A stretch of 63,868 nt of DNA, filler included, from Reclinomonas americana ATCC 50394 (GCA_048213135.1; 8 parts of 3 records of this genome joined end to end with filler, not necessarily neighbours in it), one strand, 5' to 3'; shown: positions 1,384 through 62,840, counted from the whole stretch's first letter. A program made the numbers and translations. Notes: generated by a model not told the origin, from the letters alone.

Positions 1384-4300
1384 CGGCCTGCACAATAAAG
1401 CCCACAGTTTGAGAGTGCGGATAAGAGATAGAAAGGAGTGAGAGAGAGGCAGAACGTACCTCGAGCTCCACCGCCACCTGCGCGAACGACGGTCGCCGGT
1501 TGTGGCACGTCGACCCGTCCCAGCAGCGTTCAATGATGCGCGCCACGGGCTCCGGACAGGCACAAATGTCGGGTCGCGCGCCCAGAGCGGCTACCACTGT
1601 CACCATTCACCCAAATCAGACAGCCGCAAGTGCGAGTGCTGTGACATCACCACGCAACTGTACACCACTTGGAACTCATTGGTGGCGGTGTGGAATGGCT
1701 CCCGTCGCGACATCATCTCGTTGAGAAGCACACCAAAACTGCAAGACCGATTGCGGTTAATTAACATTGCTGTCGATAGGCACAGAGAAACACATTCCTC
1801 TAGTCACCTGTACACGTCTGTGCAGAGAGGGGAAGAGAGGATTAGCAGCTGACGTAAAAAGTACTGAGAAGATATCGAGTGTGACAAACCTGCTTTCTCA
1901 TCGTATTTTTCTCGTCGCATGACCTCCGGAGCCTGGAACCGTGGTCAGCAAAGAAGTGAAAGCAACGAAAGTCAACTCCAGACGCACCATGTACCCAATC
2001 GTTCCGCCTGGCGGGTGCGTGCACGTGAGGGAGGAGATGAGTAACAACGTGAAACCAACAATCGAGACACAAGCGAGTGCGCACCCACGCATTCACAGCT
2101 GCTGTCGACTCGCGACCTGCTTGCACACAGTGGGTCTTGCTGTAATCGATCCTCTTCGTGTTCACTCCACTCACCGCTGGAAGTCCATCAGGCGACTCAA
2201 CCCAAAATCGGCAATCTTGACACACAGCCGACTGCCATTCTTGAACCACAAAATGTTGGCCGGCTTCAGATCGTGATGCGCAATGTGAACACGGTGAAGG
2301 AAGGCCTGCATGACAAGAAACACACTCATGAGAGACAGCGACGATAATACAAGGACACTGTGGTGTGTGTGTGTGTGTCGCGGCACCATGGTTCGCGCGA
2401 TCTGCAGGCACAGGTCCAGCCTGGGTCCACCACACAGAGTCAGAAAGAAAACATTATGCAAAGCGACGCCACTCATGCTTATCGCGTACCGAATCCGCAG
2501 CGAGGCAGCACCACCCTCCGCGCCGTACAACCAAGATTTCAAGTCACCTCCATCAATAAACTCAGTCACAATCAACCGATGTGGTCCGCGCACTCGAGTG
2601 ACAGCTCCCAGCAGATTGACAACACCGGGGTGCCGTCTGCGCGTCAAAGCCGAGGTCAACAGGGACATACTCCACAACAAATAACACGAAAAACAACGCA
2701 ACGCTCGACTGAGAGCACGCAGTTCGCGGAGCAATGGACCCTCGGCGCGCTGCAATTTCGCCGCCGAGTCCGACGGCGACCAATCCAACACAACCTCCTT
2801 GATGGCGACCACTTGGCCCAGCAAACGCCCTTCGTACACGACGCCATACGAACCGCGTCCAAGCTCTCGTCCTTTTCGTAACGTCGCTGGATCCAATTCC
2901 AAGAACTCAAACTGGCGGCTGATGTGAGCACAATACCGTGGGCAGATGGCAGTGAGCACAGGTGATCACGCAACTTCACGAGACACGGTGGCATTGCTCT
3001 CTCTCAGTGCTCGCTCCTGCAGCGCTTCCAGACGTGCCAAACTCGCGTCGTAAACCACCTGCTGCGTGTGCGCGCAGCTGTCAGGCGACTGGACATGCGT
3101 GAGCGATCATGAAGGGAGAGATGCACAGACCTGCGTTACTGCCTCCCCCGCCTCCTCCTCCTCCTCAATCAAAACGTCATCCTGCGTGTTGTGCGCAACG
3201 CATGAGTAGGGCGGAGAGAGAGGACTCGCTCTGGCGACAATAGACGCACATCAACAGCTGACTCGGCAGAGACCGACAGCGGTGACAGCTTCGGAGCCAG
3301 CGGGGAGTTGCGAGCGCCGGGCGACGACGACGGTCCACCAGATGACGACGACGTAGGCACACCTGCATCACCAAAACAACACAGTGAGCAAAGTGAGCGT
3401 TGATGAGGAAGATGCAGATCGAGAGAGGGAACGCAACGGGAGAGAGCACCGGGTGTGCCGATCTTGATGAGTGGCGTGACGGAGCGTTCGCCACCATCGT
3501 CACCAATCGGTGCGCGATGTGCATCCCGCTGTGGAGTGCGTACAGGTGCCCTAGAAAGAACAAGAACAAGGCCACGAGTGAATCGAACGTACTCGCACGC
3601 ATGAACAAGCAGGAGATGGGAGTCAACCTGTTGATGGAGACAGGCGGAGTGATCGAGTCGAGATCGTGCGCCGGGTTGGCCAGAAGATGGACTCCGGCAC
3701 CGGCTGACAGCCGTTGCATGCGTACTCCGCTGGCTGGCGACTGCAGCGCCTCCTCATGCGCTGGCAAGTCAATGTCCTCCTCCACGCTGGGAGTCGCACT
3801 GAGGCCGCCGCCGTCACCCGCAGGCACCAACAGCGTGTCGTCAGGCAGCAGAACAGCGCGGTGTTCGTCTTCCTCAATGTCTTCAGAATCCAGCGCGCTG
3901 TGTGTGCGTGTGGCGTTCGTCAGTCAGTGAACGAGGATGAATCTAGTGCAGAGATGCGTGCCTTTCAGTCGACACGGAAGTGCCAGCGCTCTCTGTCTTG
4001 TACTGATACGCGGCCTCGGGAGGACCCAAGTAGCCTGCATGGCGTGTTTGCAAGTTAAGCACAGATGGAATGCAGAGTCGCCGGTCATCGCACTCGACAA
4101 ACCGTCGTCTTGTGCCTTGGACATGAAAAACTGGCGTCGACGCGAGGCCAACGCCGACAGAGTCGATACATCACTGTGCAGCTCGACGAGCTTTGGTGAC
4201 TGCGCTGCCGTTTGTGCCCGCCGTTCGTTCTGCAAAGGTGGCCCGCAGAGTGAGGGAGAGAGAGCAAGCAGAGCTCACAGCGTGCCGTGCAACTCACCGG

Positions 4301-5560
4301 ATCACTGCCACTACTACTGCCGCTGCCACGCCACGGGCCAAGCGAGCCGCTGCCGACAGGCATGACGGTCGCTGGACGCTGCTGCGCAATCTGATCCTGC
4401 TCCGATGATGGCGAATCTCTGCGGTCATGCTCGTCAGCAGCAGCAGCGGCAGCAACAGAGAGTGACGAAGTAATGCCACGCAACTCCTGCACCGGCGACG
4501 GCAACGAGGGAATGTTACTGCTCAATCGCACCGGCAGATACGGTCTCGGGGTCGACACCACACGACCGTCGCCCGATGGAGACGCGTGGCGGACCGCATA
4601 CTCGGCCAGGAACTTGATTGCCGGATCGATCTCGAACGACAGGGCGCCGAACTTGGGCGACGCCGCCGAACCGGCCGATTGCGGGCGCTTGGACGCAGCT
4701 GTGCGAAGAGGGTGAGGAGATTGGAAACATCAACAAGGGGGAGCTAGAGAGACTCACGAAGAGAACAGTCGTCGTCGTCATCGTCGTCGTCATCGCCACC
4801 GGCATCGTCCATGTACACCAGCTCAAAGTACTCGACGGCAGAGATGGACTTGGCCAGCGACTGACACATGGGCAGTGGAACGCGATCCTCTGCACAGCAG
4901 CACACGTCAGCCTCGCGTTGACCGCGGATCGACAGTCAGTCAGCGAGGAGAAACGCGACTAGCATCGGCCGGCAACAGGCCAAACAGGAAGATCGGATCA
5001 CGCGGAAACGCCGCCTTGGCCTCCTGCAAGAAGCCGGTGCCGGAGTTGGGCCTGAAAGAGAGAGCTAAGCACTCATCGCTCGATGCACAACCAGCGAGCA
5101 ACAAGACAGAAGAAACCTGTAGATCTTCCGCAGAGTCGACAGTGCGACGAGCGAGAAGCAGAGGACGGTCATCGACAGCTGCATCGAGAATGAGTGAGGT
5201 GAGTGGACACGCGCTTCATGCTTGTCACACAAAAGACGATCTGCGCACAGTGTTGTTCGACGGAGGCAGTGACGGAGGCGAGGCGCCTTTGATGTGCACA
5301 CTCATGGTGACTGGAACCGAACAATCATCATCATCATCCACCGTGAACGAGCGCGACACGTGGCGCCGCGACTCGCGCACAACATGCGTGAGTGGATCAA
5401 CGGGCAGTGCGCGACCAGCAAACGCACTCAGCAGCACAGCGCACTGCTCAAAAAAAGAAGAACATCAGCGCGCGAGTCGCGGGGGATTTGAGACCGCGCA
5501 CACGCTCACCTGCTCAGGTGCGCCTATCACGTGGATGTGCACTGATAAGGGCGAGGCCAT
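1081..5560 (-). CDS. Multi-exon TKL-group protein kinase with an N-terminal degenerate Rho/Rac-like domain and an acidic C-terminal tail
   Basis: Kinase motifs LGRGSYGVVY, VAIKEV, RHPGVVNLLG, HHDLKPAN, KIADFGLSR, GGTIGYM and IIERCWD...RRPSFAQV. Upstream exons splice in frame from ATG 5560. Stop TGA at 1083-1081. Confidence 0.85.
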
Positions 5561-6898: not shown

Positions 6899-8035
6899 TC
6901 ACCACGAGAACTCTTCCAGTGCACCCACCGCCACAAATGTGTGATGTCTGTCGCCAGGCAGCACGAGTATGGAGAACGAGTTTTCACCGCCCGCAACCAC
7001 AGTGCGCGGTGTGTCGTAGAATGCCACTGGTGCGTCATCGAAACCGTGCACAGTCAGCAGCGCCCACGGGAGCTCTGCGTCGTCGGCGAGCGCCTGACGC
7101 AGCATGTCGTGCAGAGTGAGAATGTCGGAGCGCGTCAGCATTCCCGTGGCGTGCACTGTGAAGCAGTCGGTGGTGCGCAGCTGGCCGTCGTCGTCAGTGG
7201 CTGGAGTGGGTGGTTCGTAGGCGAGCACGTGCGCCGACCACGCATCACGTTCACGACTGAGACACCTGTGTGTGTGCGCGCGCTGTCAACCAATGGCAGA
7301 TTCTCTCCCCCCTCTCCCCATCATAACTCAACTCTTGGAGCCGCAGACCCAGCATGCCGATCCAATCGTACAAGTCGGCCGAGTCCAGTTCCGAGTCCGG
7401 CAGCAGACCACCGGGTGCCAGGCACACGGCCTCCAGCACCTCCGGCAACACCACCGAGTCCAGCTCACCCTCCACCACCTCCAATGGCACCTGCTCCCAC
7501 TCCTCCAGCGCCGCGGGCAGAGGACCATCGTACACAGCCACCACGTCAGTATTCTCTAGCCGCTCCGGCGACAGACACCACTGCAGTCGGTCGTACAGGT
7601 TACCACCCGGCACAAACGTCGGTCTCATCATGTCTATGTGAGCGTCTACACACGCAAGACCACAGTCAGCCAGCCAGCCGCAATGGAGAAGGCACAAAAA
7701 AAACGCACGCAACAGAATGCCTCCTCACTGCGCGACTGATGCCTCTTCGCGTCGAGTCCCAGCTGCTGAAAGGCATCGCGATGCATGCGCACCGTCAGCG
7801 TGCCATCGCACACGCAGCACGCGTTGCCGCCGGCATCCAGCCGATCGAGTGTCAGCGCGTTGAACTCGTGTCGACCGGCCTCACCTCGCAGCACCTCGCC
7901 CACAAACGAGACCGACGCCAGAGTCGCCAACGCCACACGCTTTCGCAAGAAGCGCGCCTCGCGTAGACGCTTCAGCAGCGCCACACGCAGAGCAGAGCGT
8001 GGTGCGCGCACACCAGTCGGCACCACAATGTCCAC
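6899..8035 (-). CDS. RPP40: RNase P/MRP subunit p40-like protein, 5'-partial and spliced
   Basis: Motifs DGTLTVRMHRDAFQQLGL, FVPGGNLYDRLQWCL, DLYDWIG and LPWALLTVHGFDDAPVAF...GGENSF resemble Rpp40. TGA at 6901-6899. Confidence 0.8.
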
Positions 8036-8857: not shown

Positions 8858-9025
8858 TCGTGAGCGCGGTTGTTTGTCGCGTAGATGCGCAAAAAGACAG
8901 AGAGCAGACAGAGAGTGAAGAAACAGCAACAGCACCACCCAATAAGCAAGCGAATGAACCACGATTACCAATTCTCATCTANNNNNNNNNNNNNNNNNNN
9001 NNNNNNNNNNNNNNNNNNNNNNNNN

Positions 9026-9037
9026 TTAATTAATTAA
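9026..9037. other. Artificial assembly linker TTAATTAATTAA within N runs (also at 14571, 42062, 47579, 53743, 57152 and 60006)
   Basis: Identical 12-mer with stops in all six frames, centred in a 100-nt N spacer each time. Confidence 0.97.
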
Positions 9038-9748
9038 NNNNNNNNNNNNNNNNNNNNNNNNNNNNNNNNNNNNNNNNNNNNCAGATATCGTGAGCAATGG
9101 GTTCATTCAAACGGAACTCCACCATGATCCTCTTTCACTCTCTAAACGTCCATTTCTCTCGCTCTCTCGCATCCTGCTGTCTTGCTTCCTTCTATCACAT
9201 GACAGCTTCGTCTCAGTTTGTTCCACGTGCACCCAGTGTCGATTCACACTCATCTCAACTCTCTCTCTCTCTCTCTCACACACACTCTTCACAGCACTAA
9301 TCACTTGCACCTCCCGGTTCTGCTCCTTCTCTCCACAGCCACCTCTATTGCTTGGATTCATCAGACTACTTCTTCTCATCCCTCCGTCACACACTCTTGA
9401 CGCCGCACATCTCCTGTAGTAATTTCAATCTCGATTCCTCCCTCAGCAGCCTCATTCGCTCACTTTCATCGAGCATCTTCATGCGCCTATTCTTCACCTT
9501 ATCTCCCTCTCCCTCTCGCGCAGTACTCCTCACTCTAGACGGTCTTCTCTCGCTGCCTTAGTCTTCGGCAATCCTTATCCTCTGCGTCCTGCCCCCCTTC
9601 TCGTCTCATCTATTCCAATCCGCCGCTGCCNNNNNNNNNNNNNNNNNNNNCCCCTACTCCCCTTCTCATATCCCCCTCTCACCATTGATACTCAGGTGAT
9701 TCCAGTTGCAGTGCATGTCGGTCTCACAGAACCCATCTGCACGCACTG

Positions 9749-11900
9749 TCAGTCACCAATCTCAACATTCACCGTCCGCGATGCGCAACTCGTCGGATTG
9801 ACACACACTCCATCCGCGTCGCGGCATGTCTGCGTGTTGTTGCATCCCGAGCACACGCTGCAGGTGGGACCCGTCCACTTACCAACGCACGATCCACAGT
9901 CCACACCGGTCCAGTGCGAGCTGCACTTGCATGTGTTGTCGGCCTGGCACGTACCATGCAAGCACGAGCAGGCAGTGCACTTGGGCTGAATGCGCGATCC
10001 GAATGGCGTGTTGGTGATGCCCGCAAAGGCAACGTTGTCGATGAGCCAGCCAATTTCCGGATTGTACATATCTGTCCCAATGCGGAAGCGAATTGCGACC
10101 GTCTTGCCTGTGTGCCGAGGAAACGCGGAGATCACGTTACTCAGATATCACACGCACGCACACATGGTGCGCGACCATTACACACCCGCGAAAGCCTGAC
10201 CAAAATCGAGCGTCTCACGCCGCAGAACCCACCCTTCTGGACGGAGATCGCCGCCCGTGTAGGCGCGTCGACCACCCAGTGGATTATCGTACTTTACAGA
10301 GATCACACCAGTATATGAGGGCTGTGTGAAACGCAAGAATCAGAGTGAGCATTGTTGCGCAAGGAATACACCAACACTCGTTACACGCGCGCTATACTCG
10401 CAATACCTCAATCACCAGTACGTATACGCATTGCGTGCCGATACCCTGCTGCGTGCACTCGCAAACTATCTCTTCCTGCCGCTCCTCACTTATTCCCTTC
10501 CCCTTCCTGCCATCTTCGTCTCTTCTTCATCTTTCTGTTGATTCTCTCGGTTCAACCACTCACCGACGCCCAATGCGAGACATCATTCCAGGTCAATTCA
10601 TCGTCACTGGAAATCTCCACCACACCGCCATCATTTGCTGCGGACGTGTCCGCGTAGTACTCAAACGAGTACGCGTGATCAAAGGTGACAACAAAGGCCT
10701 TTGTCGGATCACTCGACACGACCACCGGGGGCGACTGCAGCCACGTGTCGCTGGTAAAAGCAGAGTCCTCGCCGTAGAATAGTGAATTGCCGAACGTAGG
10801 TGTGAAAATGTACCACGCATTCACAGTGCCACCAGCCTTCCACACTCCCAGGATATAGGGCGTGTCCACAGTCTCTGTCGCGGAGTGCGCTGGTGCGTAT
10901 TCCACGCTGACAAGACTTAAAAACGAGCCGACTGTCTCACGGCACGCCTTGTCACCGGTGATCGACACATGGCCTTGCAGTAAAATCGGATCGATGTTGC
11001 GCAACGATGACGCTAGGTGGAACGAGAAATCGATTGTAGTCGACTGTCCAAAAGACGGCACAGGAACAATCTTGGACAGCACGGCAAACTCCACGTCGGC
11101 AGGTGTGTTGGGATCCGCAACGAGTGTCACCGTCATTGTTGTGTTGCTGCCAGTAAAGTATTGGGGATTGCGAACAACCACTCGCACCACACCATCCTCA
11201 CCGGGTTGCTGCGAGCATGTGTGTACATATACGAGAGAGTGAGCTGGTGGGAAGCGTAAGAATGGTGTCGGATGCGAAAATGAACGCACGCACCACCAAG
11301 CCATCGTGATTGCAGTTCACAGCACCCTCTTCCACGCTCGCTTGGTCCACCACAATACTGAACTTGGACCAATCATCGTCAAACGACTCAACCACATCAG
11401 AGTTGTCATACTGCGTCGGCGAGGCCGCGCATGCACCTGAGTGTGGACAACTTGTTTGTAAGGCTCAGTGACATGAACAGGCAGTGACATGAACAGGCAG
11501 GGCTTACCGAGTCCGCGCACAGCAAATGCTGCAGCCATAGTCACTGCGTCTGCTGGGTTCACAACGCTGGTCGCCATCAGCAATGCATCACGCTGCTGTG
11601 TAAATGTGGCATCGGCTGGTGTGATCAGCAAGCCGGCCACCACGTAGTCGGCCATGGCGCGCTTGACTTGCGAAAAGGTGCGACCATTGGCGTTCTTGTG
11701 GAGGTTGATGTAGGCCTGCATGAAGGAGGAGAGGGGAAGAAGTGAGTAAATGGAGAAGGAGAGGGATGAAATCCAAAGACAGACGGACCTTCCACGAGAG
11801 ACACAGACAGACGGAGACAGAGAGACACAGACAGGCAGANNNNNNNNNNNNNNNNNNNNGACAGACAGACAGACAGACAGACAGACAGGCAGACAGACGA

Positions 11901-21274: not shown

Positions 21275-22463
21275 CCGAATGGTGTGATTCAGCGTGTCGG
21301 CCACGTACACACACTCATGATTCGTATTGGGATCCGCGGCAAGACCCTGCGGCCCCCCAAACTGCGCGGCAACACTGGTCCCGCGTGGCCGGTCAGCAAT
21401 ACCTTGGCTGCCGTTGCCAGCCAACGTGGACACCGTGGTGCCGACAATCGAGCGAACGGCGTGGTTGGACTCCTGTAAGTGTGTGTGTGTGTGTGTGCGC
21501 GCGCGCAGTGAGACGAGGTTGTGCGGCGAGGCAGCGCAATCGCACGCAACTTCAGAGACATAGATGACTTGTGTGTATGGGTCAATGAAAATGTCGGTGG
21601 GGCTGAGAAAAAGGGGTCAGCAAATGACCCTCGACGTGGACGAGCGCGGCAACAGGAAACTCACTGCGAAAAGCGCGCATCGCTGGTGCCGTTGGCAAAG
21701 CCCGGCGTCGCAACAACGCCAGCAAAGACGCTCACAGTGCCAGAGAGAGTCACTGTGCGAATGACATGCGTGCTGCACGCCGATGAAAGGTAGGGTGAGT
21801 TGCGACACAAAACACAGCCGGCTCATAAAAAAAAAACATACGCACTCATACTCTGTGAAAAATGCATTGCCGGTGGCGTCCACCGCAACACCCTATGTGC
21901 AAACAGTGGCCAGTTGTGAGCGATCTCGCATCAGCACAAGGCAGTGCCTCTGTCCCAAATAGGCACACACCCACGGGGAGGAGCTCGCGGCCAGGGTGGA
22001 GACCGAAATCGCTCGGCCAATGGCACTGGACACACCAGAGATTTGAAAACCGAGACCGCCCACCGCGATGCCCGTACTCGACAAGACAGAGCCCTGCAGC
22101 GTGATGGTGGTGCTCGTCGTCGCTGAGGGAGCGAGGGTGGTGATGGTCGGAACACCTGCAACACGCGTTGTCAGAAAACTGCCAAGTATTCTCTCTGCGA
22201 CTCGGGCACGGTACCGACAGCAGAAGCACCTTCTCGACGGAGAGCGGCGAACTCGTCATAATTGGCCAAGCGCGCTTCGCATGCACATCGTCACGCGCAT
22301 CGTGATGGCCGGTGTCGCTGCCATCATTCACCTCCGTCGCACGAACACGCACCTGTTGCAAACACGACATGATGTACTCGTCCACTCCCGCTGCTGCTGA
22401 GGAAGGCGGCGGCGTCCACCACAACTCGCAGCCATTGGCGATGCGCAGGGAGGCAGTCGGCGC
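21275..22463 (-). CDS. NHL/FN3-like protein segment. The contig is probably inverted relative to the rest of the gene.
   Basis: VSTLAGNGSQGIADRPRGTSVAAQFGGPQGLAADP...VYVADTLNHTIR, VSVFAGVVATPGFANG and the FN3-like start GVPTITTLAPSATTSTTITLQGSV. Confidence 0.75.
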
Positions 22464-41800: not shown

Positions 41801-44415
41801 AAAGCGGGAAGAGCAAAGGGGGAAGAGCAAACGGGAAGAGCATGGGAGAAGAGCGAAGGGGGAAGAGCAGAGTACAAGCATAACACTTGAGACCGCATTT
41901 CACCATCCTCGCTTTCGTGGTCTCTTCCCCCCAGTGCTCTTCCCTTCTCCCCATCCCCTAGCTCTTCCTTCCCCCATGGAGAGGTAGATCGAGAGAAAGT
42001 CACTTCGACGAGTAGAANNNNNNNNNNNNNNNNNNNNNNNNNNNNNNNNNNNNNNNNNNNNTTAATTAATTAANNNNNNNNNNNNNNNNNNNNNNNNNNN
42101 NNNNNNNNNNNNNNNNNCGTTTCGAAACATCCAACATGATTCTCTTTCCTCTCCACCCTTCCCCTATTCTCCCCCGTTATTCACCTGCCAGATCCACAAA
42201 ATGGAACTTGGAGTACGTCGCCCGTCGATCACCCATCGAGCGCACACGCAACGACACCGTGGCCACGAAATGCGACTGCGCCAGCACCGCCTGCTCAATC
42301 TCGGGCGTGGGCAACCCACGTGCCGCACGCTTCGCATGATCGTGCCTGCAGCGTGCAAACGAGCCAAACAGCAAATCCACCGCCGAAACCGCGTCATGCA
42401 CCTGCCGTTCGGTGATTCCCTCGGCGAAGAACCCGACCGACAGCGATCCACGAATGCGCAACGCCTGCTGCCTCGCCACCGGCTTGCTCGACGCACGACT
42501 TGCAAACTGCGGCGACGACACAGGCGAGGTGGCCGACAGCGGCGACGTGGCCGACTCATTCCCACTCGTCGACGACGACGTTGGCGACGTGCCAGCAGCT
42601 CCCTTTGCACGCACAGGCGATTGCGCTGCAGCTCCCAACGATCCCAGCAACACATCCTCCATGCTCTCCGGATGNNNNNNNNNNNNNNNNNNNNNNNNNN
42701 NNNNNNNNNNNNNNNNNNNNNNNNNNNNNNNNNNNNNNNNNNNNNNNNNNNNNNNNNNNNNNNNNNNNNNNNNNNNNNNNNNNNNNNNNNNNNNNNNNNN
42801 NNNNNNNNNNNNNNNNNNNNNNNNNNNNNNNNNNNNNNNNNNNNNNNNNNNNNNNNNNNNNNNNNNNNNNNNNNNNNNNNNNNNNNNNNNNNNNNNNNNN
42901 NNNNNNNNNNNNNNNNNNNNNNNNNNNNNNNNNNNNNNNNNNNNNNNNNNNNNNNNNNNNNNNNNNNNNNNNNNNNNNNNNNNNNNNNNNNNNNNNNNNN
43001 NNNNNNNNNNNNNNNNNNNNNNNNNNNNNNNNNNNNNNNNNNNNNNNNNNNNNNNNNNNNNNNNNNNNNNNNNNNNNNNNNNNNNNNNNNNNNNNNNNNN
43101 NNNNNNNNNNNNNNNNNNNNNNNNNNNNNNNNNNNNNNNNNNNNNNNNNNNNNNNNNNNNNNNNNNNNNNNNNNNNNNNNNNNNNNNNNNNNNNNNNNNN
43201 NNNNNNNNNNNNNNNNNNNNNNNNNNNNNNNNNNNNNNNNNNNNNNNNNNNNNNNNNNNNNNNNNNNNNNNNNNNNNNNNNNNNNNNNNNNNNNNNNNNN
43301 NNNNNNNNNNNNNNNNNNNNNNNNNNNNNNNNNNNNNNNNNNNNNNNNNNNNNNNNNNNNNNNNNNNNNNNNNNNNNNNNNNNNNNNNNNNNNNNNNNNN
43401 NNNNNNNNNNNNNNNNNNNNNNNNNNNNNNNNNNNNNNNNNNNNNNNNNNNNNNNNNNNNNNNNNNNNNNNNNNNNNNNNNNNNNNNNNNNNNNNNNNNN
43501 NNNNNNNNNNNNNNNNNNNNNNNNNNNNNNNNNNNNNNNNNNNNNNNNNNNNNNNNNNNNNNNNNNNNNNNNNNNNNNNNNNNCAAGAAGAGCCCACTGA
43601 CGCAGATCTCGAACAGCTGCGGCGGAATGTCCTTCACGTGGGAAACAACGAGTGAGCGACCAGGGAGGGAATCAGCACTTGCCACGCGCGCGAACTGCGA
43701 CTACCTCCACGATATCAAAGAGGCGCTGCAAGACGCGCGGGAACATGCCCGCATCCGGACCCTCCGGCGCACCAAACAGCGTGTACTAATGCCACACAGA
43801 CACACGTCATGACATGACACGACACGCAGAGACAAGTCGTCACATTGTGCGCAACTGTCTTGCCCGTGCGCTCATGTCCATACGAGAACAACGTGCAGTT
43901 CTTGCCCGCGGCAAAGTCCACCACCATCGGCTCCACACATCGATGGAAGAAGGCGCTCTGTGCGTGTGCGTGCACGCGTGCGTGTCATTTTCGTTCATGT
44001 CCACCATAGACGCACTCTCTTTCTGTCTCTTTCTCTCTCTCTTACAAACCTGTGAGGCATTCTCGCCAAAGACATAGGCAAAGCGGAAGCTCTCGTCATT
44101 CGGCACCGAGACGTGCACCTGAAAGCGGGAAAGACGGTTAAATTTTCAGTTGCACACTTTGGTCGGCACTCTCGTTATGTCACTCTCTTTCTCATTCACC
44201 TCTGAGGGCGATAACACATGCACGTGCGAGTTCACAGGCGACGAGGCAGGTGCCACGCGAACAGCAACATCAAATTCGTTGGTGGCCACTGATTGAGTCG
44301 GAGAACCTCCTGAGGATGCAGGCGAGGAGTGCGATGTTGTCACTGGCAGGGCCAGAGGAGGCACAGTGGCGGCCGCTGACGCAGAGTCAGTGTCGCCAGT
44401 GCTGCCTGCGCTCAT
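32729..44415 (-). CDS. Kinesin-like protein A: divergent N-terminal motor, very long coiled coil and Ser/Pro/Arg-rich tail
   Basis: FDVAVRVAP, FRFAYVFGENASQ, NCTLFSYGHERTGKT|YTLFG, SKFHFVDLAG and IPYRDSKLTSLLHHSFGGNCRTLMVTCV...ETHNNLVYASRAQRIRNCP. Coiled-coil exons at 34023-40690. Stop at 32731-32729. Confidence 0.88.
41330..41870. repeat. Intronic minisatellite, 14-15 nt unit (gggggaagagcaaa)n
   Basis: Tandem units visible inside a kinesin A intron. Confidence 0.9.
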
Positions 44416-44830: not shown

Positions 44831-47800
44831 ATGGCCGACGACAGTCGTGCCTTTTCCGTAATCGCGCGAGTTGCGTCACGAAAAAAACACACACATACAT
44901 TGTTCGATCTCAACGGTGCTCTCACTCACGCGCACACTCTCTCTCACACACACACGCAGGTTCTCCCATGGCCTCCACACACAGCAAGCGCCACAGAGCC
45001 AACGTTACTCACACACTCACACCGCTCACGGATCACACTCACACACAATCGCTCACACGCTTTTCTCTTCACAGAATCTCTGTCATCTCTGACTCATCGC
45101 TGATCTTGCAAGCACCGCCTGCGCCACCCGACTCGCCCTCATCGTCTACAGTAGCACCACCACCCGCACCCTCATCGACCACGTACAGATTCGATCACGT
45201 GTTTACAGCTTCGTCATCATTGTCATCGTCGATTGGTCCACTGGCAAGAGCGTTTGTCGATCGCGGCGAGCACGCTTCACTGCTGCTGACAGGCTCCAGA
45301 AAGAGCGGGAAAACACGGGCGGCGTTTGGAGTCGATCCGTGGACGTCGCAAGGCGATCGGGAGAGCGATCGCGAGGAGAGCGCTGTGCTCAGTGTCCTCT
45401 CGCATGTGTGTCAGCGATTGGAGGTGCGGTTACTGCTCTGCCTCCTGTGTGTATGTACGTGCTCTTATGTAGGTCTGTAGGCGGTGCATGGAGCTGATGT
45501 TGATTCGTACTCGTTGCGGTGGTCGCTCATGTGGCTCAATCCCGGTGCGCGCTCAAAATGCTTCATTCAGTCGCTCTTGGCGTGTGTGCGAGCTGATCGC
45601 TCCTTGCAGATTCGTCGGTGGAGGATCTGCTGGCGATGCCGCTCGGTGGACTGCCGAGTGGACCGGCCCCGGCGCAGTCGTCGTCTGCGAGTCATTCGCG
45701 ATCGGCGAGTGGAAGTCGACCGCAGCAGTTGCGTCTCGTGTCGTCGATCATCGCCTTCTCTCTATCCCTTCTCACACACACGGATGTCGTGCAGTGTGCG
45801 CGGCTCGAGTTCCAACTCGGGATCGTTCTCGTCGCAGACGTCGTCGACGGCATTGGCTGGAGCGCCAATGCCGTCGACTCTGGCGGTGATGAGTGGGGCG
45901 TCGCTGGGCAGTCTGGTCGATGCGCTGCCGGTGCCGCGCATTCGTGGGGACACCGAGGGCGGTTTTTATGTGGAGAATCTGTCGAGTCGACTTGTGCGTG
46001 ACGCGCGCTCGACGGCCATTTGTGCGGCGCGTCGGCTGTACGCCTCGTTGTTGGCCGATATGCGGCGGCAATCGTCGCAGTTGCGCTCGCACGTGTTTTT
46101 CACGCTGCAGCTGCGCCAGCGCGCAGTTCGCGGTCGACCTGCCACCGATTCCACGTTCCATGTGGTGGATCTGGCGGGTCACGGGGAGGGGCAGGGGCAG
46201 GATCGCAAGGACTTGCTGGTGTTGAAGAGAGTAATCATGGCGTTGAATCGAGGTAAGGACAAGTGGGGGGAAAGGGGGTGGCGTGAGGGATTGAGCGGTG
46301 CTGACGACGATACAGGCGATCCGTCTGTGCCGTACCGCGATTCAAAACTCACCTCCCTTCTTTACAATGCTATTGGTGGTCACTGTCGCACAGTTGCGTG
46401 AAGGAGGGGAAGGAGGAGAATGACGCGGCGGAGGGGGAAATACTGCTTTGTAGTGAGCAATATTGCGAGTGATTTTGGTCATGCGAGGGGTGTTTTTCCT
46501 TTCATGTTTCACTGCACGATTCCTCACTTGTCCCCTTGCTGTTGCCCGGGTCTCTTGCAACCCATGTCTCTCTCGCTTTTGCTCAAAGGGTTGTTCATGT
46601 GTCTTCTCGGCTATCCCCCTCGCGATTCTCGTCATTGGTCTCTGTCCATTCTCCATTATCCTTGTTGTCTTTCTTTCGCTGTTGCTGTTGCTGTAACCCA
46701 ATCTCTTCCTCCTTCGCTCTCTCTTTCTCTCTCTCTCCCTCTAAATTTTACACTTTCCCTTTGTGTTCTCCCTGAAAGGGTTGTTCTTGTGTCTAAGTCT
46801 CTTACTCTGATACTCTCTTACCTCTGCCGCTGATCTGTTCCTCTTTGAGTCATACTCCATTTCTTTTTTGTCTTACTTTCCCTCGCAGCTGCAATAAGCC
46901 ACTCTCGTCGGGCTTCGTGCGTTTATGCCATCGTATCTCTCCCTTCCTCCTCTGACTCGCTCTTCGTGCATCAGCTTCTCGGCTATCCTCACCCACTCTT
47001 CCGGATTCACTCCCTTCACTCTCATTCTCCTCCGGTCTATCCGCTCGCCCTTTCATGTCCTCCTCCCCCTCGCTTCCTTCCCTTCCTTCTTCTTCTTCTT
47101 CTTCTTCTTCTTCTTGTTCTTGTTCTTTTTCTTTTTCCCCTCCTCCTCTCCTCTCCTCCCCTCCTCACCACCTCTTCTTCCTCCTCCTTCCCCTTTTCCC
47201 CCTCTCCTTGCCCTTCCACCTCCCTCTCATTCACCCTTCCCCTTCTACGCAGGTGCTGATGTTGTGCCTGTCGCCGGACCCCAATCTTTACCGTGAAACA
47301 CAACTGGCACTCGGGCAGGCCGTGTCAGCAGCCGAGATCCGCAACACGCCAACGCCCATGCTGTGGGACGACACGGTGGTGGACGTATTCGCAGTCGCAC
47401 GTCTGGAACGGCAGTGTGGCGAGCTGGAGGCGCTGAACGAGGATCTCATGAGTCAACGCGACGTTCTGGAACTGCAGCTGGCAGCGCAGCTGAGACCAGA
47501 CCGACGCGCCTCCACCGCCGACATTACCGATCCGNNNNNNNNNNNNNNNNNNNNNNNNNNNNNNNNNNNNNNNNNNNNTTAATTAATTAANNNNNNNNNN
47601 NNNNNNNNNNNNNNNNNNNNNNNNNNNNNNNNNNACGCCGCTGATTGAGATGCGCCGGAAAATGTCGGCAGTGGAAGGTGCGCTCCAATTGTGTGCCTTC
47701 TTTATCGACAACAGCACTCACCTCTCTCTCTCTCTCTCTCTGATTCAGGTGAGGTACAAGTGGCGGCCGAGTTGGCACGCAAGCAGGGCGAAAAGGAGAT

Positions 47801-50067
47801 TATCCGCTTGCAGAGCGAGAACCGAGTCAAGCAGAAGCAACTGCAGGCGGCACATCTTGCGCGGTCGGAGATGGAGAACGAGCTGAAGAGCGTGCAGGCA
47901 CGATGCGCGGAGCTGGCGGCCAAGAACGAAGCATTGCAGGTGCAGGTCAATGATCTGAAAACGCAAGCACTGCCGGTGCGTTTGTCACGTGCATGTGCTA
48001 GATACTCCACATGCGTTTCGCTCACTGTCTTTCTTCAATCGCCAGCCATTTTCTCCAATGGCGAGCCCGCTGTCGTTGAGTCCCTCCTCCGCCGACACCA
48101 ATGCCAAGGTGCAGCTGGAGCAGGAGCGGAGTGAGTGGCGCAATCGTGAGCGGTCGATGAAGGAGCAGCTGGTGGAGTTTGAGCGTCGTCTGGAATCGGC
48201 GGCGGCACTGGAGGACATGTTTGAGCAGGCGGCCGCACATCGGCAGCGCCTGACGACAGAGAACACGGCGTTGGAGTTGCGGGTGAAGCAGCGTGACGGC
48301 GAGATTGCGCAGTTGAGAGTGCAGCTGGAACGTGTACAGCAGCTGTACCAGGAGGCGAGGACGGCAGCCGCCGAGCAGCTTCAGCAGCAGCAGCAACCGG
48401 TGATGAATGGACATCACACGCCCGACGCCGACAAGGAGAGATTGCGCGCCCTGGAGCAGACTGTGGCCGAGCTGCGCGCTCAGCTGGCCCGCGGTCCCAC
48501 TCCCACGGGCGGGGTCGACGTGCAGCGAGCGCATGCGCGTGCCACCGTGGCGGAGGAGTCGTTGCGCAAGCAAAAGGAGCTGTACGAACAGCTGCGCGTG
48601 CGTCTGCGTGTGGCCGAGTCGGAGGCGCAGGGCGCGAAGCGCGAGGCGGCTGCTGCGTGCCGTGAGTTGGACATGGAACGCGACATGCATCGCGGGACCA
48701 GGGAGCGCCTGGCCAGCAGTGAGGCGCTGGTGCGCCGGCTGGAGACGCGNNNNNNNNNNNNNNNNNNNNNNNNNNNNNNNNNNNNNNNNNNNNNNNNNNN
48801 NNNNNNNNNNNNNNNNNNNNNNNNNNNNNNNNNNNNNNNNNNNNNNNNNNNNNNNNNNNNNNNNNNNNNNNNNNNNNNNNNNNNNNNNNNNNNNNNNNNN
48901 NNNNNNNNNNNNNNNNNNNNNNNNNNNNNNNNNNNNNNNNNNNNNNNNNNNNNNNNNNNNNNNNNNNNNNNNNNNNNNNNNNNNNNNNNNNNNNNNNNNN
49001 NNNNNNNNNNNNNNNNNNNNNNNNNNNNNNNNNNNNNNNNNNNNNNNNNNNNNNNNNNNNNNNNNNNNNNNNNNNNNNNNNNNNNNNNNNNNNNNNNNNN
49101 NNNNNNNNNNNNNNNNNNNNNNNNNNNNNNNNNNNNNNNNNNNNNNNNNNNNNNNNNNNNNNNNNNNNNNNNNNNNNNNNNNNNNNNNNNNNNNNNNNNN
49201 NNNNNNNNNNNNNNNNNNNNNNNNNNNNNNNNNNNNNNNNNNNNNNNNNNNNNNNNNNNNNNNNNNNNNNNNNNNNNNNNNNNNNNNNNNNNNNNNNNNN
49301 NNNNNNNNNNNNNNNNNNNNNNNNNNNNNNNNNNNNNNNNNNNNNNNNNNNNNNNNNNNNNNNNNNNNNNNNNNNNNNNNNNNNNNNNNNNNNNNNNNNN
49401 NNNNNNNNNNNNNNNNNNNNNNNNNNNNNNNNNNNNNNNNNNNNNNNNNNNNNNNNNNNNNNNNNNNNCGTGCACGAACTCGAACCGAATCAGCATCTGC
49501 TTGAAGCGCAGCTTGAAGCCTGCCGCGCCAACGTGGAGGAAATGGCGGGGAGGTTGGAGGCCTTGCACGAGGCCGGCGCCGGGCGGCACGTGGTGGTGCG
49601 AGTCGTTGCGTTGTTGTTAATGGTGCTTCGATATGATGGTGTGATTCTTTGCTCACTGTCCGAGCAGGCGGCAAACGGGGACGCGGATCACTACGGCGCC
49701 GATTCCAAGAATCAGCGCGTTGCCACGCTGGAGCAGGAGCTGGCGGCGAGCCGATTAGAAGTGGCAGAAGTGCAGCGACAGCTCAAGCATGCGTTGAATG
49801 AGTTTGAGCAGCGCAGTTGCGTCGTGTGCACGCGCGGACTCGGAGGCGCTGTGCTAACTCTCCTGCGCAGTGCTCTATTATCGGGAGGCGGGTGAGAGGG
49901 CGAGGCAGGCGGAGGAGAAACTGGCGGCGTTGAAGGAGGCGTTTGTGGCACAGGGCCGCACACTGCGCTCGCAAAAGAGACATTTACAGGATGTGGTGGA
50001 GGCCAAGGACCGCGAGCTGGCCATGCAGCACCCGTCGCCACCGAAACTACATGCGTCGAGAAAGTAG
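44831..50067 (+). CDS. Kinesin-like protein B, paralogue of A: divergent motor plus coiled coil
   Basis: MADDSRAFSVIAR|VLP, YRFDHVF, LLLTGSRKSGKT, GGFYVENL, LRSHVFFTLQL, FHVVDLAG and VPYRDSKLTSLLYNAIGGHCRT|VLMLCLSP. TAG at 50065-50067. Confidence 0.88.
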
Positions 50068-50124: not shown

Positions 50125-53042
<2,918 letters not shown>

Positions 53043-54235: not shown

Positions 54236-57042
54236 AACGAATCCACCAACGTGATGGAGTCGGAAGAGAACGAATTGGTCCGCGGCCGCCTCGTGCAGAT
54301 CGACGAGGACTCGCTTCGTGATTTCGACGACTCGGTGAGTTGCTCTTCCATTTTCGCCGCCTCCTCCTCACTCTTGCCTCACTTGTGCCACTCTCCAGGC
54401 GATTGTGTTGACTGGAACTGTGGCCAGCGAGGAGGTGGCGAGAGCAATTGCTTCGAGAGGCGTCACGCTGCGGTGCGTAATCTGGTAGTAACATATCGAG
54501 TGTGCATGAGCATGTCTTTGTGTCACATCCGATTGTGAGTCTCCTCTCGCGTTTCCGACTATGTGAGCGCATGTGTGTGATGCTGCGCGGTTCTGTGTTG
54601 CCTCAATGCCTGCGAATCTGTACGATGTGTATGTCTACGTGTACGTTGTATGCGACAACTTGTGAAGCAGTGTGTGAATATGTGTGCATCTTGCACATGT
54701 GTATGATATCATGAACGCGTTGCATTCTGTGTGCTTTCTCGGCGAGTCACTTCGCTTCATGACTGTCAATGACAGTATGAGCATGTGACAGTATTTTTTG
54801 TGCACGTGTGCATGACTGTGTGTGGATATTGCGTGTGCTTGCTGCGATTCTCATCTTGCACACCCGTGACTACTCTCTTTACCTCTTCCCTCTTCTCTTC
54901 CCCGTTTTCCCTCTTCTCTCCCCCGTATTCCCCCTCCCTCTCCCTCTCCCCCTCCCTCTCCCTCTCCCATCTCCCTCTCCCTCTCCCTCCCCCCTCTTCC
55001 TCTCCCTCACCACCTCCCTCCAGCGCCGTCCACCGCCTGTACGCCGTCGCCGACTCGATCGACTCGCTCGTAGAACAATTGCAACGCGACACGACCTTTG
55101 TTGCGTCCGTTCCCCCGTCACCGCACCCTATCCCACCACCTCACCTCCTTCCCCCCTTTCTCCCAGGCCAACGGCATGCCCGACGACGACGAACCCTCGG
55201 ACGGCGGCTACTCCCTCACCTTCGACTCATTTCACCGGTACTTCACCAAGGAGGACGTGGCGCGCCTCTACGAGCAATTCGAACCCGTCTACTTCCCCGG
55301 CCGCGCCAACCTCAAGTCACCGCGTCATCGTTTCTCGGTGCTGATTGACGGCCCGCGCTCCCGCTACTACTTTTGCAAGTTGATTGTGGAGAGTGACCGG
55401 CAATCTGTCGTCAAGTTCTCGTTGAAGAAGCGGCCATACATTGGCACGACCAGCATGGACGCGGAGCTGGCGCTTCTCATGTCCATCTCGGGACTGGTGC
55501 GACCGAATTACCTGGTGCTGGATCCGTTTGTCGGCACTGGGAGTGTGTTGATTGCGGCCGCGCATCACGGCGCCATGGTGATGGGGGCGGAGTTGGATGG
55601 TCGTGTGTTGAAGGGCACTGTGGGCGAGCGCAAGGGTCGCTCCATTCTCGACAATCATCGCCATGTTGCGTGCGAGGGGGGATAAGGGCAAGAGCTACCC
55701 CTACTGCTTTCTCCATCTCCGCTTCCCTTCTTTTCCCCCTACTCCTTACGCCTTCCTCTTCCCCTGCTTGACCCCCGTTCTACTTCTCCTTTCGCCTTCT
55801 TCTTTTCATTTCCCAAGTCCCTTCCCTCATCCTTTCGCCACTCTCTTTCCTCCCTCGCTTGCCCTCTCCATTCTACATCTCCTTTCGCCGTCCCTTCCCT
55901 CGTTTCCTTTCGCCACTCACAGTCTTCTCCCACTTGCCCTCCCTTTCCTCTCCCTTTCCTCTCCATTCTACATCTCCTTTCGCCTTCCTCTCTTTCCTCT
56001 CCCTTTTCACCTCTCTCTTTTCCTTTCGCCGCTCTCTTTCCTCCCCGCTTGCCCTCTCCCTTTCCTCTCCTCCCTTTCCTCTCCCTTTCCTCTCCCCACT
56101 TTCCTTTCGCCACTCTCTTTCCTCCCTGCTTGCCCTCTCCATTCTACATCATCTTCTTTCGCCTTCCCCCTTTTCCTCTCCCCTTTCCCTTCCCCTCTTT
56201 TCCTTTCGCCACTCTCATTTCTTGCCACGTGCGCAGTACGGTCTGCCACCACCGCTGGACCTGCTTGTCAACGACGCCTCGCAATGCATGTGGCGGCAGC
56301 ATTCGTGTGAGATGTTTGATGCGATTGTCACCGATCCACCGTACGGTGTGCGTGAAATGTCGAAAAAGGTGGGCAAGAAGGGCCGCGAGATCGAGGATTC
56401 TGTGCGCGATACCTTGTTGCGTCAGGCCCCCTTTCCTCCCCCCACCCCCTCTCCCCCATCGTTCGCTAATTGCCACGCAGCTGGAAGTCCGGCAAGCACA
56501 TTCCCCAGAAGGTCATGTACACGCTGGACAGAATACTTGAGGATCTGCTGACGCTCGGCGCCCGCACATTGCGTGTCGGCGGCCGTCTCGTGTTCTGGGT
56601 GCCGTCCACCCCCGAGTTCCACATCAATATGCTGCCGGAGCACGAGGGCATGCGTCTCGTCTCCGTGTGCGAGCAGTCGCTTTCGGAGCGCTACGGCAGA
56701 CACTTGGTGACCATGGAGAAGACCAAGGCGTGGGATGAGGTGGTGCGTGGTGCGCGGTGGCGACTGTCTTTTCTTGTTTGACTGTGAATCCTCAAACTGC
56801 TCTGGCCACAGGAACACCGCGGCGCCACATGGGTGGGCGACGAGCACGAAACAAGGCAGTTGTTGCTCACCAAGTTCCGCGAAGCGTACTATCTGCCAGT
56901 GCGCGCCGCTCGTCGCGAGTTTCACCAGAAGCGCAAGGAGGCGTATTTTGCACACGTGGCGGCGTCGGCGGCCGCGAAGGCGGCGGCAGCAGAGGCGGGC
57001 GATGCCAGTGGTTCGGGAGACAAGGTTGCTGGATCGGAATGA
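54236..57042 (+). CDS. TRMT11: tRNA (guanine-10-N2)-methyltransferase TRMT11/Trm11, 5'-partial
   Basis: FSLKKRPYIGTTSMDAELALLM, LVLDPFVGTGSVL, FDAIVTDPPYGVRE, LRVGGRLVFWVP and CEQSLSERYGRHLVTMEK. Confidence 0.93.
55820..56220. repeat. Intronic pyrimidine-rich degenerate tandem repeat (tttcgccactctctttcctccc...gcttgccctctcc units)
   Basis: Recurring blocks visible in a TRMT11 intron. Confidence 0.75.
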
Positions 57043-60282: not shown

Positions 60283-62840
60283 CACCAAGAATGTGTGCAC
60301 ATCGTCGGCCTTGGGCAACATGAGCATCTTAGAGATGTAGCTGTACGGAATGCGGGTGTTGTACGTCGGACCGTGCAGCTTCATGACACCCTCGAACAGC
60401 TCAATGTCGTAGCGGCCTCTGCAAGACAGCAATGAGTCGCGCGATGATGAATATTGGATGGTGAGTGCACCAACCTTGGCACCAGCATGGACAACTTCTG
60501 GAAGACGGCGGCCGCATCACCAGCACTGGTGACGTCGGTCATGGCGAGAATGCGCTTGACCAGTTGCTCGTGGCCTGCATGCCCGAATACAATGAGACTG
60601 ATGGTAAGAGAGACAGTGGGAAGAAAAGAGAGGGAAGAGAGAGGGAAACAGCGCGAGTGGAAGACACACATAGAGAGAGAGAGAAAGCAACGCGCAAAAT
60701 AAACAGAACTGCTACAACTTCGACCACAATTGCACCTCTCCACTCGTATCTGCCATATCACCATCCCAACACACTGCAAGCCCTCCCAACAAGCTTATTA
60801 TCCAGAACCCAAAACACATCACCTCCAAACAAACACAAACAAAAAGACACACCCTTCCCTCATATTCCACATCTTCGCATTTCCCGCTTCCCCACACTCT
60901 TCCCCTCAACCTCTCCTTTCCTTCCATATCCTCACCTGCCGCGGCCGCCGACCGCACCACCTCCCCATCCTCGTTCTCCTCCTCCTCCTCCGCCGCCCCA
61001 TCAGCCGCCGCCGTCCCATCCGAGCCCAACGCCGGCACGTGCAGACGCACCTCGACCAGACCCTCGGCCATCTGCTCACCAATTACACACAGTCAATCTC
61101 TGCGCCCTTCATCTCCCACCCTTCCCCCTGCTTCCCGCAACATCCTGATCCCCCGAAAAATCCATCAGCACCTCGTTCTTGCCCTGCGCCACGCACTGCG
61201 TAATGTCGGCCAGGTGCACCTCCAGCGTCGGCTTGTCGTCGACCATAAAGACGAGATTCTTGCCCTCGAACTCCACATTGCCCCAGTTCTTCCCCGACGT
61301 GCCCAGCGTGCGCTTCTCCATGTTCTCCTTGACCTTCTTCGCGCGCAGATACGACTTGATCGTCTCAAAGTCGTCCTCGCGCAGGTTGAGAAAGTTGAGC
61401 TGCATGTCGGCGCCCATGCGCAGACGCAGGCGACAGTTGCGCGAGAGGCGCGTCCACTCGGCGTCGGTCACCTCGCTGACGGGCAGCGACTTTTTCTCGC
61501 GGTCCTCCTCGGCGGTGTTGCCTTGCGAGCTGGTCCATTCGATTTTGTTGTTGCCGAGGCGGAGGGTGCCGACGCTCTGACAAGGGAAAGGGATTGTAAG
61601 GGAAAGGGATGAGGACAAGGGAAAGAGATGAGGAAAAGGGAAAGGGATGAGGAAAAGGGAAAGGGATGAGGAGAGGGGAAGAGAAAGAGATGAGGAGAGA
61701 AAGAGATGAGGAGAGAAAGAGAGAGCACATTCGGTGTAATCAGCGGCGGCAGTGTGACGACGGTGGGTTCATTGCAGGGCAGAGAGAGATGAAGAGATGA
61801 AGAGGGAAAGAAGGAGAGGATGGGAGCACAAAAGGTCGAAATGCGAGACAACGTCGAGATGCACAAGGCAGAAGAGGAAAAGGATGACGACGAAGGAGGA
61901 GAGTGAAGGGCAGGGGAGGAGGGCACAGAATGCGATCATGTGGTGCAAATAGCAGGTCGAAATGCGTGACAATGTAGAAGAAGAAGGAGAGGAAGAGCAG
62001 GAAAGACAGCGGAAGCGGCGATACAAAGTCGAAATGAAGAGGAAAAGAAGACGAAGAACGAGAGTGAAGGGCAGCGGAAGACAGAAGAGAGAAAGAAGAA
62101 GAACAGAAATGAGAGACACACGACGCAGGAGAAGGAGAGGTGAAAAGGAACGGGTAGAAGAGGAGAGAGAGGAATGCACAGCAGATTTGAAGGCTGAGAA
62201 GGAGACGGGTCACAACGCGAGACAACGCTGAAATGCACAAGGCAGAAGAGGAAAAGGATGACGACTGAGGAGGAGAGTGAAGGGCAGGGGAGAAGGGCAC
62301 AGCAGAATGCGATCGTGGCGCAAGAAGCAGGTCGAGAAAAGGTCGAAATTAAGTAGAAGAGGAAGGAGAGGAAGAGAAGAAGGTCGAGACAAGGTCGAAC
62401 TGCACAGAGTAAGAGAGGAATAAGATGCACGGAGTGTGAGAGAGTGTGAGAGTGAGTGTGAGAGAGAGAGAGAGACAAAGAGCGTGCAAGGAAGAATTCT
62501 CTGACTCACGCAATGCCAGTAAACTTGCACATGAAGAGAGTGTGAGAGAATGAGTGTGTACATGTGTGTGAGAGAAACAGTGTGTGAAAGTGTGTGAGTG
62601 AGCGTCTCTGTCAAAAAGTGCGACATGTCTTTGTTGTCAAGTTCACACTGGAATGACAACACACACACTGACTGACACAAACACACGCACAAAGAGAGAG
62701 ATAGAGCAGTGTGTGCACACTGCATACACACACAGAGAGAGAAAAAAGGAAAACACTCATTATCAAAAAAACGCAACTCGCTCTCTCCGCGCACTCTCCA
62801 AGCACACCACATTATCAAACGTAGTCTTCTCCGCCGCCAT
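60283..62840 (-). CDS. SSRP1: FACT complex subunit SSRP1/Pob3, 3'-partial
   Basis: MAAEKTTFDNV, SGKNWG, GKNEVLMDF, LVEVRLHVP and LVPR|GRYDIELF...LHGPTYNTRIPY...LPKAD. Confidence 0.95.
61843..62336. repeat. Two ~120 bp direct-repeat copies (about 61843-61960 and 62217-62336) in SSRP1 intron 1
   Basis: Shared block atgcacaaggcagaagaggaaaaggatgacgac..aggaggagagtgaagggcagggga. Confidence 0.85.

Follow-up and report, generated by a model that had tools for sequence, protein, structure and literature searches.

Introns that begin GTTGCG, in most cases GTTGCGT, very probably form a genuine class of 5' splice sites (donors) in the window analyzed here, a draft stretch of 63,868 bases from Reclinomonas americana ATCC 50394 (GCA_048213135.1). 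An earlier note made from the sequence had listed 15 such introns and read their donor as the common GTGCG donor displaced by one base; that description holds for a major donor class with more members than were listed. In total, 20 GTTGCG introns and two GTTGAGT introns were supported, all ending in YAG. GTTGAGT stands to GTGAGT as GTTGCGT stands to GTGCGT and is a rarer sister class. As estimated from the introns read, the class covers between about a fifth and a third of all introns. By their sequence signals, its members rank as U2-type GT-AG introns, removed by the same spliceosome as the ordinary introns around them.

The 15 listed positions all carried GTTGCG on the strand given for them, and T followed in 13, the exceptions being 43855 (C) and 61141 (G). 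Eleven of these junctions were fixed by homology or repeat alignment (55100, 55665, 56416, 46393, 43855, 61141, 62777, 27922, 29455, 30314, and 2702) and three were required by the reading frame (49816, 52065, and 52257), whereas the remaining one, 44870, found no support. The other 53 GTTGCG sites and their surrounding genes were also read, and six supported donors lay beyond the earlier list: 1658(-), 2974(-), 21550(-), 30029(+), 7713(-), and 9789(-). Thirteen of the 20 GTTGCG junctions thus rest on homology or repeat alignment and seven on frame necessity. Some GTTGCG sites were plainly coding, such as Glu-Leu-Arg codons of coiled coils and the site at 42252(-) in a kinesin. The supported introns are given below by gene; a slash marks the splice junction, and the donor-agnostic gene model named in three entries is described with the statistics.

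55100..55166, plus strand: GTTGCGTC intron of 67 nucleotides (nt), TRMT11-like gene; a frame shift is needed.
55665..56236, plus strand: GTTGCGTG intron of 572 nt, TRMT11-like gene; gapless homologue alignment across ...SILDNHRH/YGLPPP...
56416..56480, plus strand: GTTGCGTC intron of 65 nt, TRMT11-like gene; sole GT-AG pair linking two conserved frames.
46393..47252, plus strand: GTTGCGTG intron of 860 nt, CT-rich, divergent kinesin gene; the PDB KIF4 alignment stops at the exon end.
43786..43855, minus strand: GTTGCGCA intron of 70 nt, second kinesin gene; the exon ends in the P-loop ...TGKT, at Pfam Kinesin position 89.
61072..61141, minus strand: GTTGCGGG intron of 70 or 67 nt, SSRP1/POB3 gene; the alignment with PDB SSRP1 overruns the exon by one residue.
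61577..62777, minus strand: GTTGCGTT first intron of 1201 nt, CT-rich, SSRP1/POB3 gene; acceptor in phase with the POB3/SSRP1-aligned open reading frame (ORF).
27864..27922, minus strand: GTTGCGTC intron of 59 nt, NHL-repeat gene; spliced IFVAD/TGNNCIRYL, compared with uninterrupted NHL units.
29455..29519, plus strand: GTTGCGTC intron of 65 nt, NHL-repeat gene; spliced VYVAD/TNNSTIRQI, same comparison.
30314..30377, plus strand: GTTGCGTT intron of 64 nt, NHL-repeat gene; spliced ARFGGPA/AGAADDIGNVFIPDSE, same comparison.
21473..21550, minus strand: GTTGCGTG intron of 78 nt, NHL-repeat gene, newly found; spliced IYVSE/ESNHAVRSI, same comparison.
30029..30098, plus strand: GTTGCGCA intron of 70 nt, NHL-repeat gene, newly found; required by the frame, read-through meets stops.
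2637..2702, minus strand: GTTGCGTT intron of 66 nt, in frame, protein kinase gene; 22 extra residues relative to CDK2 exactly here.
1597..1658, minus strand: GTTGCGTG intron of 62 nt, protein kinase gene, newly found; a frame shift is needed.
2912..2974, minus strand: GTTGCGTG intron of 63 nt, protein kinase gene, newly found; a stop lies 2 codons in.
7646..7713, minus strand: GTTGCGTG intron of 68 nt, Rpp40 gene, newly found; required by the frame, the exon restarting just ahead of the Pfam Rpp40 match.
9737..9789, minus strand: GTTGCGCA intron of 53 nt, Cys-rich EGF-like gene, newly found; required by the frame, links two Cys-rich frames.
49816..49870, plus strand: GTTGCGTC intron of 55 nt, coiled-coil gene; required by the frame, donor-agnostic model agrees.
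52194..52257, minus strand: GTTGCGTT intron of 64 nt, golgin-like gene; coiled-coil join required by the frame, donor-agnostic model agrees.
52001..52065, minus strand: GTTGCGTG intron of 65 nt, golgin-like gene; required by the frame, donor-agnostic model agrees.
7257..7332, minus strand: intron of 76 nt with the GTTGAGT donor GTTGAGTT, Rpp40 gene; Pfam Rpp40 positions 189 and 190 are contiguous across it.
52609..52663, minus strand: intron of 55 nt with the GTTGAGT donor GTTGAGTG, golgin-like gene; required by the frame.

For the TRMT11-like gene, a seven-exon model was built and its product was aligned to 25 of 150 library hits (the first 25 of 380-560 amino acids). Reading through the 55665 intron met a stop after 6 codons. 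The 55100 and 56416 junctions fell within variable loops of the homologue alignment, a frame change being needed at each, and for 55100 the single alternative frame-compatible GT (55109) had a poor donor sequence. The remaining three donors of this gene were tcg/GTGAGT, gcg/GTGCGT, and gtg/GTGCGT. In the plus-strand kinesin, a stop occurred 2 codons into the 46393 intron, and the exon VLMLCLSPDPNLYRET... followed 860 nt downstream, after CAG; we take this exon to carry a putative kinesin motor motif, and it gave no match when searched alone against Pfam and PDB. In the second kinesin, the exon after the 43855 intron started with YTLFGAPEGPDAGMFPRVL. The two kinesin genes lie head to head, at 43584-43984(-) and 44665-47534(+). 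The plus-strand one is very divergent, with a P-loop region ...LLLTGSRKSGKT and long Ser-rich inserts, and its Pfam and PDB match was confined to the second half of the motor.

In the SSRP1/POB3 gene, no other GT occurred close to 61141, a stop lay 10 codons into the intron, and the following exon was MAEGLVEVRLHVP; the ORF after 61141, searched alone against Pfam and PDB, gave no match. Donor 62777 ended a 21-codon ATG exon, after which three stops came, and the POB3/SSRP1 alignment started in the ORF that its acceptor joins. The four spliced NHL peptides (29455, 27922, 30314, and 21550) matched, residue by residue, two uninterrupted units of the same genes; the unit LYVADTGNHTIRKI, for example, aligned with VYVAD/TNNSTIRQI. 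In the kinase, removal of the 2702 intron yielded ...LSRA/RHPGVVNLLG, splicing at 1658 linked ...NEFQVVY with VAALGARPDICACPEPVARIIERCW of the kinase C-lobe, and the exon after the 2974 intron, FEFLELDPATLRKGRELGRGSYG, opened the kinase domain.

The over-representation of the motif was examined in several ways. GTTGCG occurred 68 times on both strands, with T next in 26 of the 68, compared with 43.4 +/- 6.4 in shuffled sequences, and none of 100 shuffles reached 68. A dynamic-programming gene model that was agnostic about the donor, defined as "GT" only, took its acceptor and intron content from 14 non-GTTGCG introns and its coding term from Pfam-supported ORFs. Under three intron penalties, its commonest donor hexamer was GTTGCG, in 9 of 99, 8 of 81, and 6 of 62 introns. 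Its share among all 6976 GT sites was 0.97%, and relative to this background the three counts had binomial p values of 6e-7 to 3e-5. Gene models from our own finders were noisy and were used for the donor-agnostic counts alone. Furthermore, an unsupervised two-component mixture, iterated over positions +3 to +8 of the predicted donors, resolved into GT+GCGTnn (0.65) and GT+TGCGTn (0.35). The earlier note had also named the contrary case, in which GTTGCG would be no more frequent than position-independent base frequencies predict. In a curated pool of 44 donors (22 ordinary, 20 GTTGCG, and 2 GTTGAGT), those frequencies predicted 2.2 GTTGCGT and 4.2 GTTGCG donors, and 16 (p=1e-10) and 20 were seen, so the contrary case did not hold. 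By gene, the class accounted for three of six introns in the TRMT11-like gene, 3 to 5 of about 18 in the kinase, two of five in the SSRP1 fragment, and two of six, plus one GTTGAGT, in the golgin fragment, shares that are biased upward because the genes were chosen for holding the motif. Two other signals were discarded: an excess of CGAGTTG proved to be Glu-Leu codons of coiled-coil genes, and a branch-plus-acceptor regular expression matched at so many GT sites (19% of all) that it was dropped as a donor test.

The position of the cut was examined next to conserved residues. Moving it one base 3' changed GKT/Y to GKTD, H/YGL to HDGL, and VAD/T to VADA; the Y of H/YGL was present in most aligned homologues, and VADA disagreed with the uninterrupted NHL units. 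Cleavage as G/TT... was therefore rejected, and the intron starts at the GT.

The two kinds of donor differed in their base preferences. Ordinary donors were loose (GTGAGT, GTGCGT, GTGCGA or GTGCGG, GTACGC, GTTCGT, GTTGGT, GTCTGT, GTTTGT, and others); 18 of the 22 carried a -1G and 20 a +5G. All 20 GTTGCG donors shared +5C and +6G, and 16 of them had +7T; none of the 20 had a -1G, nor did any of 27 when candidates were included. Their -1 position (A 11, T 8, C 1) resembled the -2 position of ordinary donors (A 9, C 6, T 5, G 2), and when the class is read one base later it regains the equivalents of -1G and +5G. The claim in the earlier note that G never precedes these donors was correct for its 15 sites (A 7, T 7, C 1, G 0). 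As a departure from ordinary donors it is highly significant (0/20 versus 18/22, Fisher p=2e-8), whereas as a departure from the local background it is not (P for 0/15 of about 0.12). T at +3 was also seen in the ordinary-register donors 60474(-), 52430(-), 60282(-), 52912(-), and 1889(-), namely g/GTTGGT, g/GTTGGA, g/GTTCGT, g/GTTCGC, and g/GTTTGT, always together with +5G and -1G.

The 3' signals were shared between classes. A CTNAY branch-like motif in the last 45 nt, 11-23 nt before YAG, was found in 16 of the 22 introns of the class and in 13 of the 15 ordinary ones, a count in which one acceptor (1987) was wrongly set. An assignment to U12-type introns was rejected, given the GTTGCGT donor and branch and acceptor signals that were the same as in the other introns. 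Like the class described here, U12-type introns add a highly uniform set of donors to the main one, but they have donor and branch motifs of their own, whereas both classes here share CTNAY...YAG. An introner-like or mobile family was rejected as well: all-against-all blastn of the 22 intron interiors returned only low-complexity matches of 12-24 nt, and lengths ranged from 53 to 1201 nt.

The best-supported reading of this pattern, and one that we hold to be somewhat probable, is that U1 small nuclear RNA (snRNA) reads the class in a shifted register. The 5' end of U1 would pair one position out of its normal register, so that intron +1G stands in for exon -1G, +3U pairs in the usual slot of +2U, +6G and +7U fill the slots of +5G and +6U, and +2U is left as the lone mismatch. 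The position of the cut would then be set by the GU itself, through U6 and U5, as at human shifted-register sites. Such a register would account for the T as the extra base, which pairing in the shifted register requires, for the unselected -1G, for the fixed +6G and +7T, and for the existence of GTTGAGT.

Duplex folding was carried out with a textbook U1 5' end, as a short motif with pseudouridine treated as U. Extended helices formed only in the +1 register, at sites 46393, 1658, 7332, and 52663. Positions 5-8 of U1 were also varied, and the resulting 256 ends were folded. The best end for ordinary donors had positions 5-6 changed to suit the local G-C core and bound ordinary donors at -8.9 and the class at -7.6 kcal/mol. 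With that end, +3U paired with U1 position 7 at every one of the 20 sites, +2U was unpaired throughout, and +1G paired with position 9 whenever -1 was A (11 of 20). U1 may thus be adapted to the G-C-G-T consensus, for example by altered bases at positions 5-6, and one such U1 could serve both classes. The folding with a changed end is to be taken as a consistency argument and a prediction about the U1 of this organism rather than as evidence on it. That a U1 with changed positions 5-6 reads a quarter or so of introns out of register, or that two U1 species exist, is a tentative suggestion that we consider less probable than the shifted register as such.

Several observations weigh against the class or its shifted-register reading. 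The curated pool was read by eye, in genes picked for carrying the motif. The introns at 21550(-), 27922(-), and 29455(+) share one position in the NHL repeat (after ...VAD or VSE, phase 0), in different NHL genes or repeats; they probably descend as paralogues from a single ancestral intron and are thus not independent members. The textbook U1 bound the class weakly, at a mean of -1.1 kcal/mol in any register, compared with -6.8 for ordinary donors, so that something beyond a register shift is needed to account for good sites of this kind; the adapted U1 invoked above is hypothetical. G precedes GTTG in 13% of all window sites, which gives P=0.06 for none in 20; the absence of -1G is accordingly marginal against background, and what is significant is the missing enrichment seen at other donors. 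T at -1, in 8 of 20, is not explained by pairing with U1 position 10. C at +5 (20 C, 2 A over both subclasses) is more strictly kept than the C found at +4 in ordinary donors, a constraint not expected from a shifted textbook U1. Rfam searches of the window found no snRNA gene, U1 and U6 included, either at the gathering threshold or at E<=1. Finally, the GTCGCGT that had been reported near 4960 was located at 4959(-), where it follows what may be a kinase first exon of two codons (ATG CTA) and starts a 70-nt intron-like stretch with two CTGAC motifs; if it is a donor, its extra base, C, would fit a bulge better than a shift.

In such a bulged register, U1 would pair canonically at +1G and +2U, one U (+2 or +3) would bulge, and pairing would resume at G-C-G-T. 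Apart from the non-U extra base of the possible donor at 4959(-), this reading can draw on the human bulge +2/+3 and +3 registers, which passages of Tan et al. 2016 (PMC4856993) describe as validated experimentally in human cells, and in which the GU is likewise set off from the downstream paired block by a single additional nucleotide. According to the same source, they comprise 54-68 (bulge +2/+3) and 36-51 (bulge +3) of 201,541 sites, together about 90-120 and less than 0.1%. A bulge keeps -1 opposite U1 position 9, however, so -1G would be expected as in 18 of 22 ordinary donors, and its absence from all 20 sites has P of about 1e-15 at the ordinary rate. Moreover, the extra base was nearly always T, and folding never placed +2U on U1 position 7. 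A GTGGCGT at 2472, considered as a bulge-type donor, was rejected because it sits within an intron and not at a donor. We therefore regard the bulge as unlikely.

Alternatively, a second U1 variant, with a 5' end fully complementary to GTTGCGT, could serve the class. Its uniformity over 7 bases beside the looseness of the other donors would suit such a variant, and among the 256 folded ends those complementary to GTTGCGT bound the class at -11.8 kcal/mol and ordinary donors worse, at about -5.6 to -6.5. Yet the single U1 fitted to the ordinary consensus bound both classes (-8.9 and -7.6), and the 3' signals of the two were identical, which makes a dedicated second U1 rather improbable.

The sites might also be defined mainly by something other than U1, a protein factor or U6 and U5, with TGCGT as the factor's motif. 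The very weak pairing with the textbook U1 (mean -1.1 kcal/mol) speaks for this, as do a natural U1-independent human intron and cut sites set by U6 that are cited in portions of PMC4856993. The motif nevertheless equals the ordinary consensus after a one-base displacement, a relation seen in the GTTGAGT/GTGAGT pair too. An unrelated protein motif would not predict this, and recognition of this kind seems distinctly improbable. That the class is no class at all but the product of gene-model errors, chance, or an assembly artifact such as an extra T in GTGCGT is very improbable indeed: the draft window includes 32 gaps and artificial linkers, and 44870 and six extra candidates are unverified, but homology or repeats fix 13 junctions to the residue, the donor-agnostic statistics speak against chance, and a spurious T would have kept the -1G of ordinary donors (18/22 versus 0/20 in the class).

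The 5' end of U1 is almost invariant across eukaryotes, and how one U1 small nuclear ribonucleoprotein recognizes thousands of differing donors is still an open problem. To our knowledge, non-canonical U1 registers have been shown only at rare human sites, with reporter genes. If the shifted register is correct, this would be the first genome in which it is a main mode of 5' splice-site recognition and not a rare exception. It would offer a natural system for asking how the cut site is fixed independently of U1 pairing, how U6 copes with an extra base, and whether the U1 5' end co-evolves with the donor consensus. The class is of interest to splicing specialists and has practical weight for annotating this genome, since gene finders with a single donor position-weight matrix will mis-annotate many of its genes.

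At human shifted-register donors, complementarity to U1 is regained by moving one position (Roca & Krainer 2009, as presented in sections of Tan et al. 2016, PMC4856993). As set out there, these sites are GT-AG, fit U1 poorly in the canonical register, and are cut at the GU, and the same would apply here. The kind of register is known, if rare in human; what would be new is an abundant off-by-one donor class. Table 3 of the same source gives 4270 of 201,541 human donors (2.1%) as predicted in any non-canonical register, whereas here a single fixed heptamer would be the donor of one intron in every three to five. The consensus core also differs, being G-C-G-T here and of the A-A-G-T type at human shifted sites, and proof by suppressor U1 exists for human only. 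As the relevant part of Irimia & Roy 2008 (PMC2483917) describes, the intron-poor Ostreococcus lucimarinus has a rigid GTGCGTG donor, for which the authors raised possible snRNA changes. It shares with the window an atypical G-C-G-T core and CTGAC-type branch motifs. In contrast, the window is intron-rich and combines loose ordinary donors with a rigid shifted class, and that part of the paper mentions no off-by-one class for O. lucimarinus. A literature search found no paper on a GTTGCGT donor, which is weak evidence of novelty because consensus logos are seldom printed as text, and a genome paper might mention it.

Seven candidate donors lacked decisive support: 44870, 4484, 45728, 1122, 49605, 450, and 3437. 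Six were delimited as follows.

44870..44959, plus strand: GTTGCGTC candidate of 90 nt, in frame; intron-like and stop-free, in an unconserved region, unverified.
4419..4484, minus strand: GTTGCGTG candidate of 66 nt, in frame, kinase gene; intron-like 3' signals, open read-through, unverified.
45728..45794, plus strand: GTTGCGTC candidate of 67 nt, kinesin gene; frame-consistent, Ser-rich insert, picked by the donor-agnostic model.
3363..3437, minus strand: GTTGCGTT candidate donor, kinase gene; ambiguous, with a same-phase GTGCTC 12 nt upstream.
49605..49667, plus strand: GTTGCGTT candidate of 63 nt, in frame; intron-like only.
1062..1122, minus strand: GTTGCGTT candidate of 61 nt; intron-like only.

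The window contains 8,380 N in 32 runs, and its G+C content outside the gaps is about 52-58%. Seven identical 100-base spacers (44 N, 12 bases, and 44 N) occur in it. The inner 12 bases, TTAATTAATTAA in the spacer that was read through, place stops in six of six frames. From this composition, the spacers look like artificial contig linkers, and the flanking pieces of the window may therefore not be real neighbors.

8982-9081, 14527-14626, 42018-42117, 47535-47634, 53699-53798, 57108-57207, and 59962-60061: spacers.

Pfam was run on 150 of the 159 stop-to-stop ORFs of at least 110 amino acids. The genes identified were an ESCO acetyltransferase, a protein kinase, Rpp40, a WD40 protein, and several NHL-repeat genes, together with long coiled-coil genes, two kinesins, a golgin-like gene, a TRMT11-like methyltransferase, and SSRP1/POB3. 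Three of them were placed by Pfam as follows.

About 4960-1500, minus strand: protein kinase gene.
54254-57042, plus strand: TRMT11-like methyltransferase gene.
Minus strand: SSRP1/POB3 gene.

A Pfam search of 124 translated pieces of conserved-gene regions, 115 of which were ORFs of 30-109 amino acids, came back almost empty. The best library relative of a methyltransferase exon was 45% identical, and a metagenome scan returned relatives of at most 55% identity. The library search gave no longer homologues of SSRP1 or of the kinesin, and the search with the WD40 protein returned generic repeats only, without a self match. A tRNA search of the window found none, and no Rfam family scored above its threshold there. 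Sub-threshold Rfam matches at 51656-51839(-), to the Hsp83 3' untranslated region (E=0.002) and snoZ178 (E=0.03), lay downstream of the golgin-like gene, where the sequence is CT/GA-rich, and are probably low-complexity noise. Microsatellites of the (GT)n, (CT)n, and GTCT types are very common in the window and govern whole-window k-mer enrichment. Long CT-rich low-complexity introns of 550-1200 nt (46393-47252, 55665-56236, 54473-55023, and 61577-62777) were found in both donor classes, and the other introns, alike in both, were mostly 53-90 nt long.

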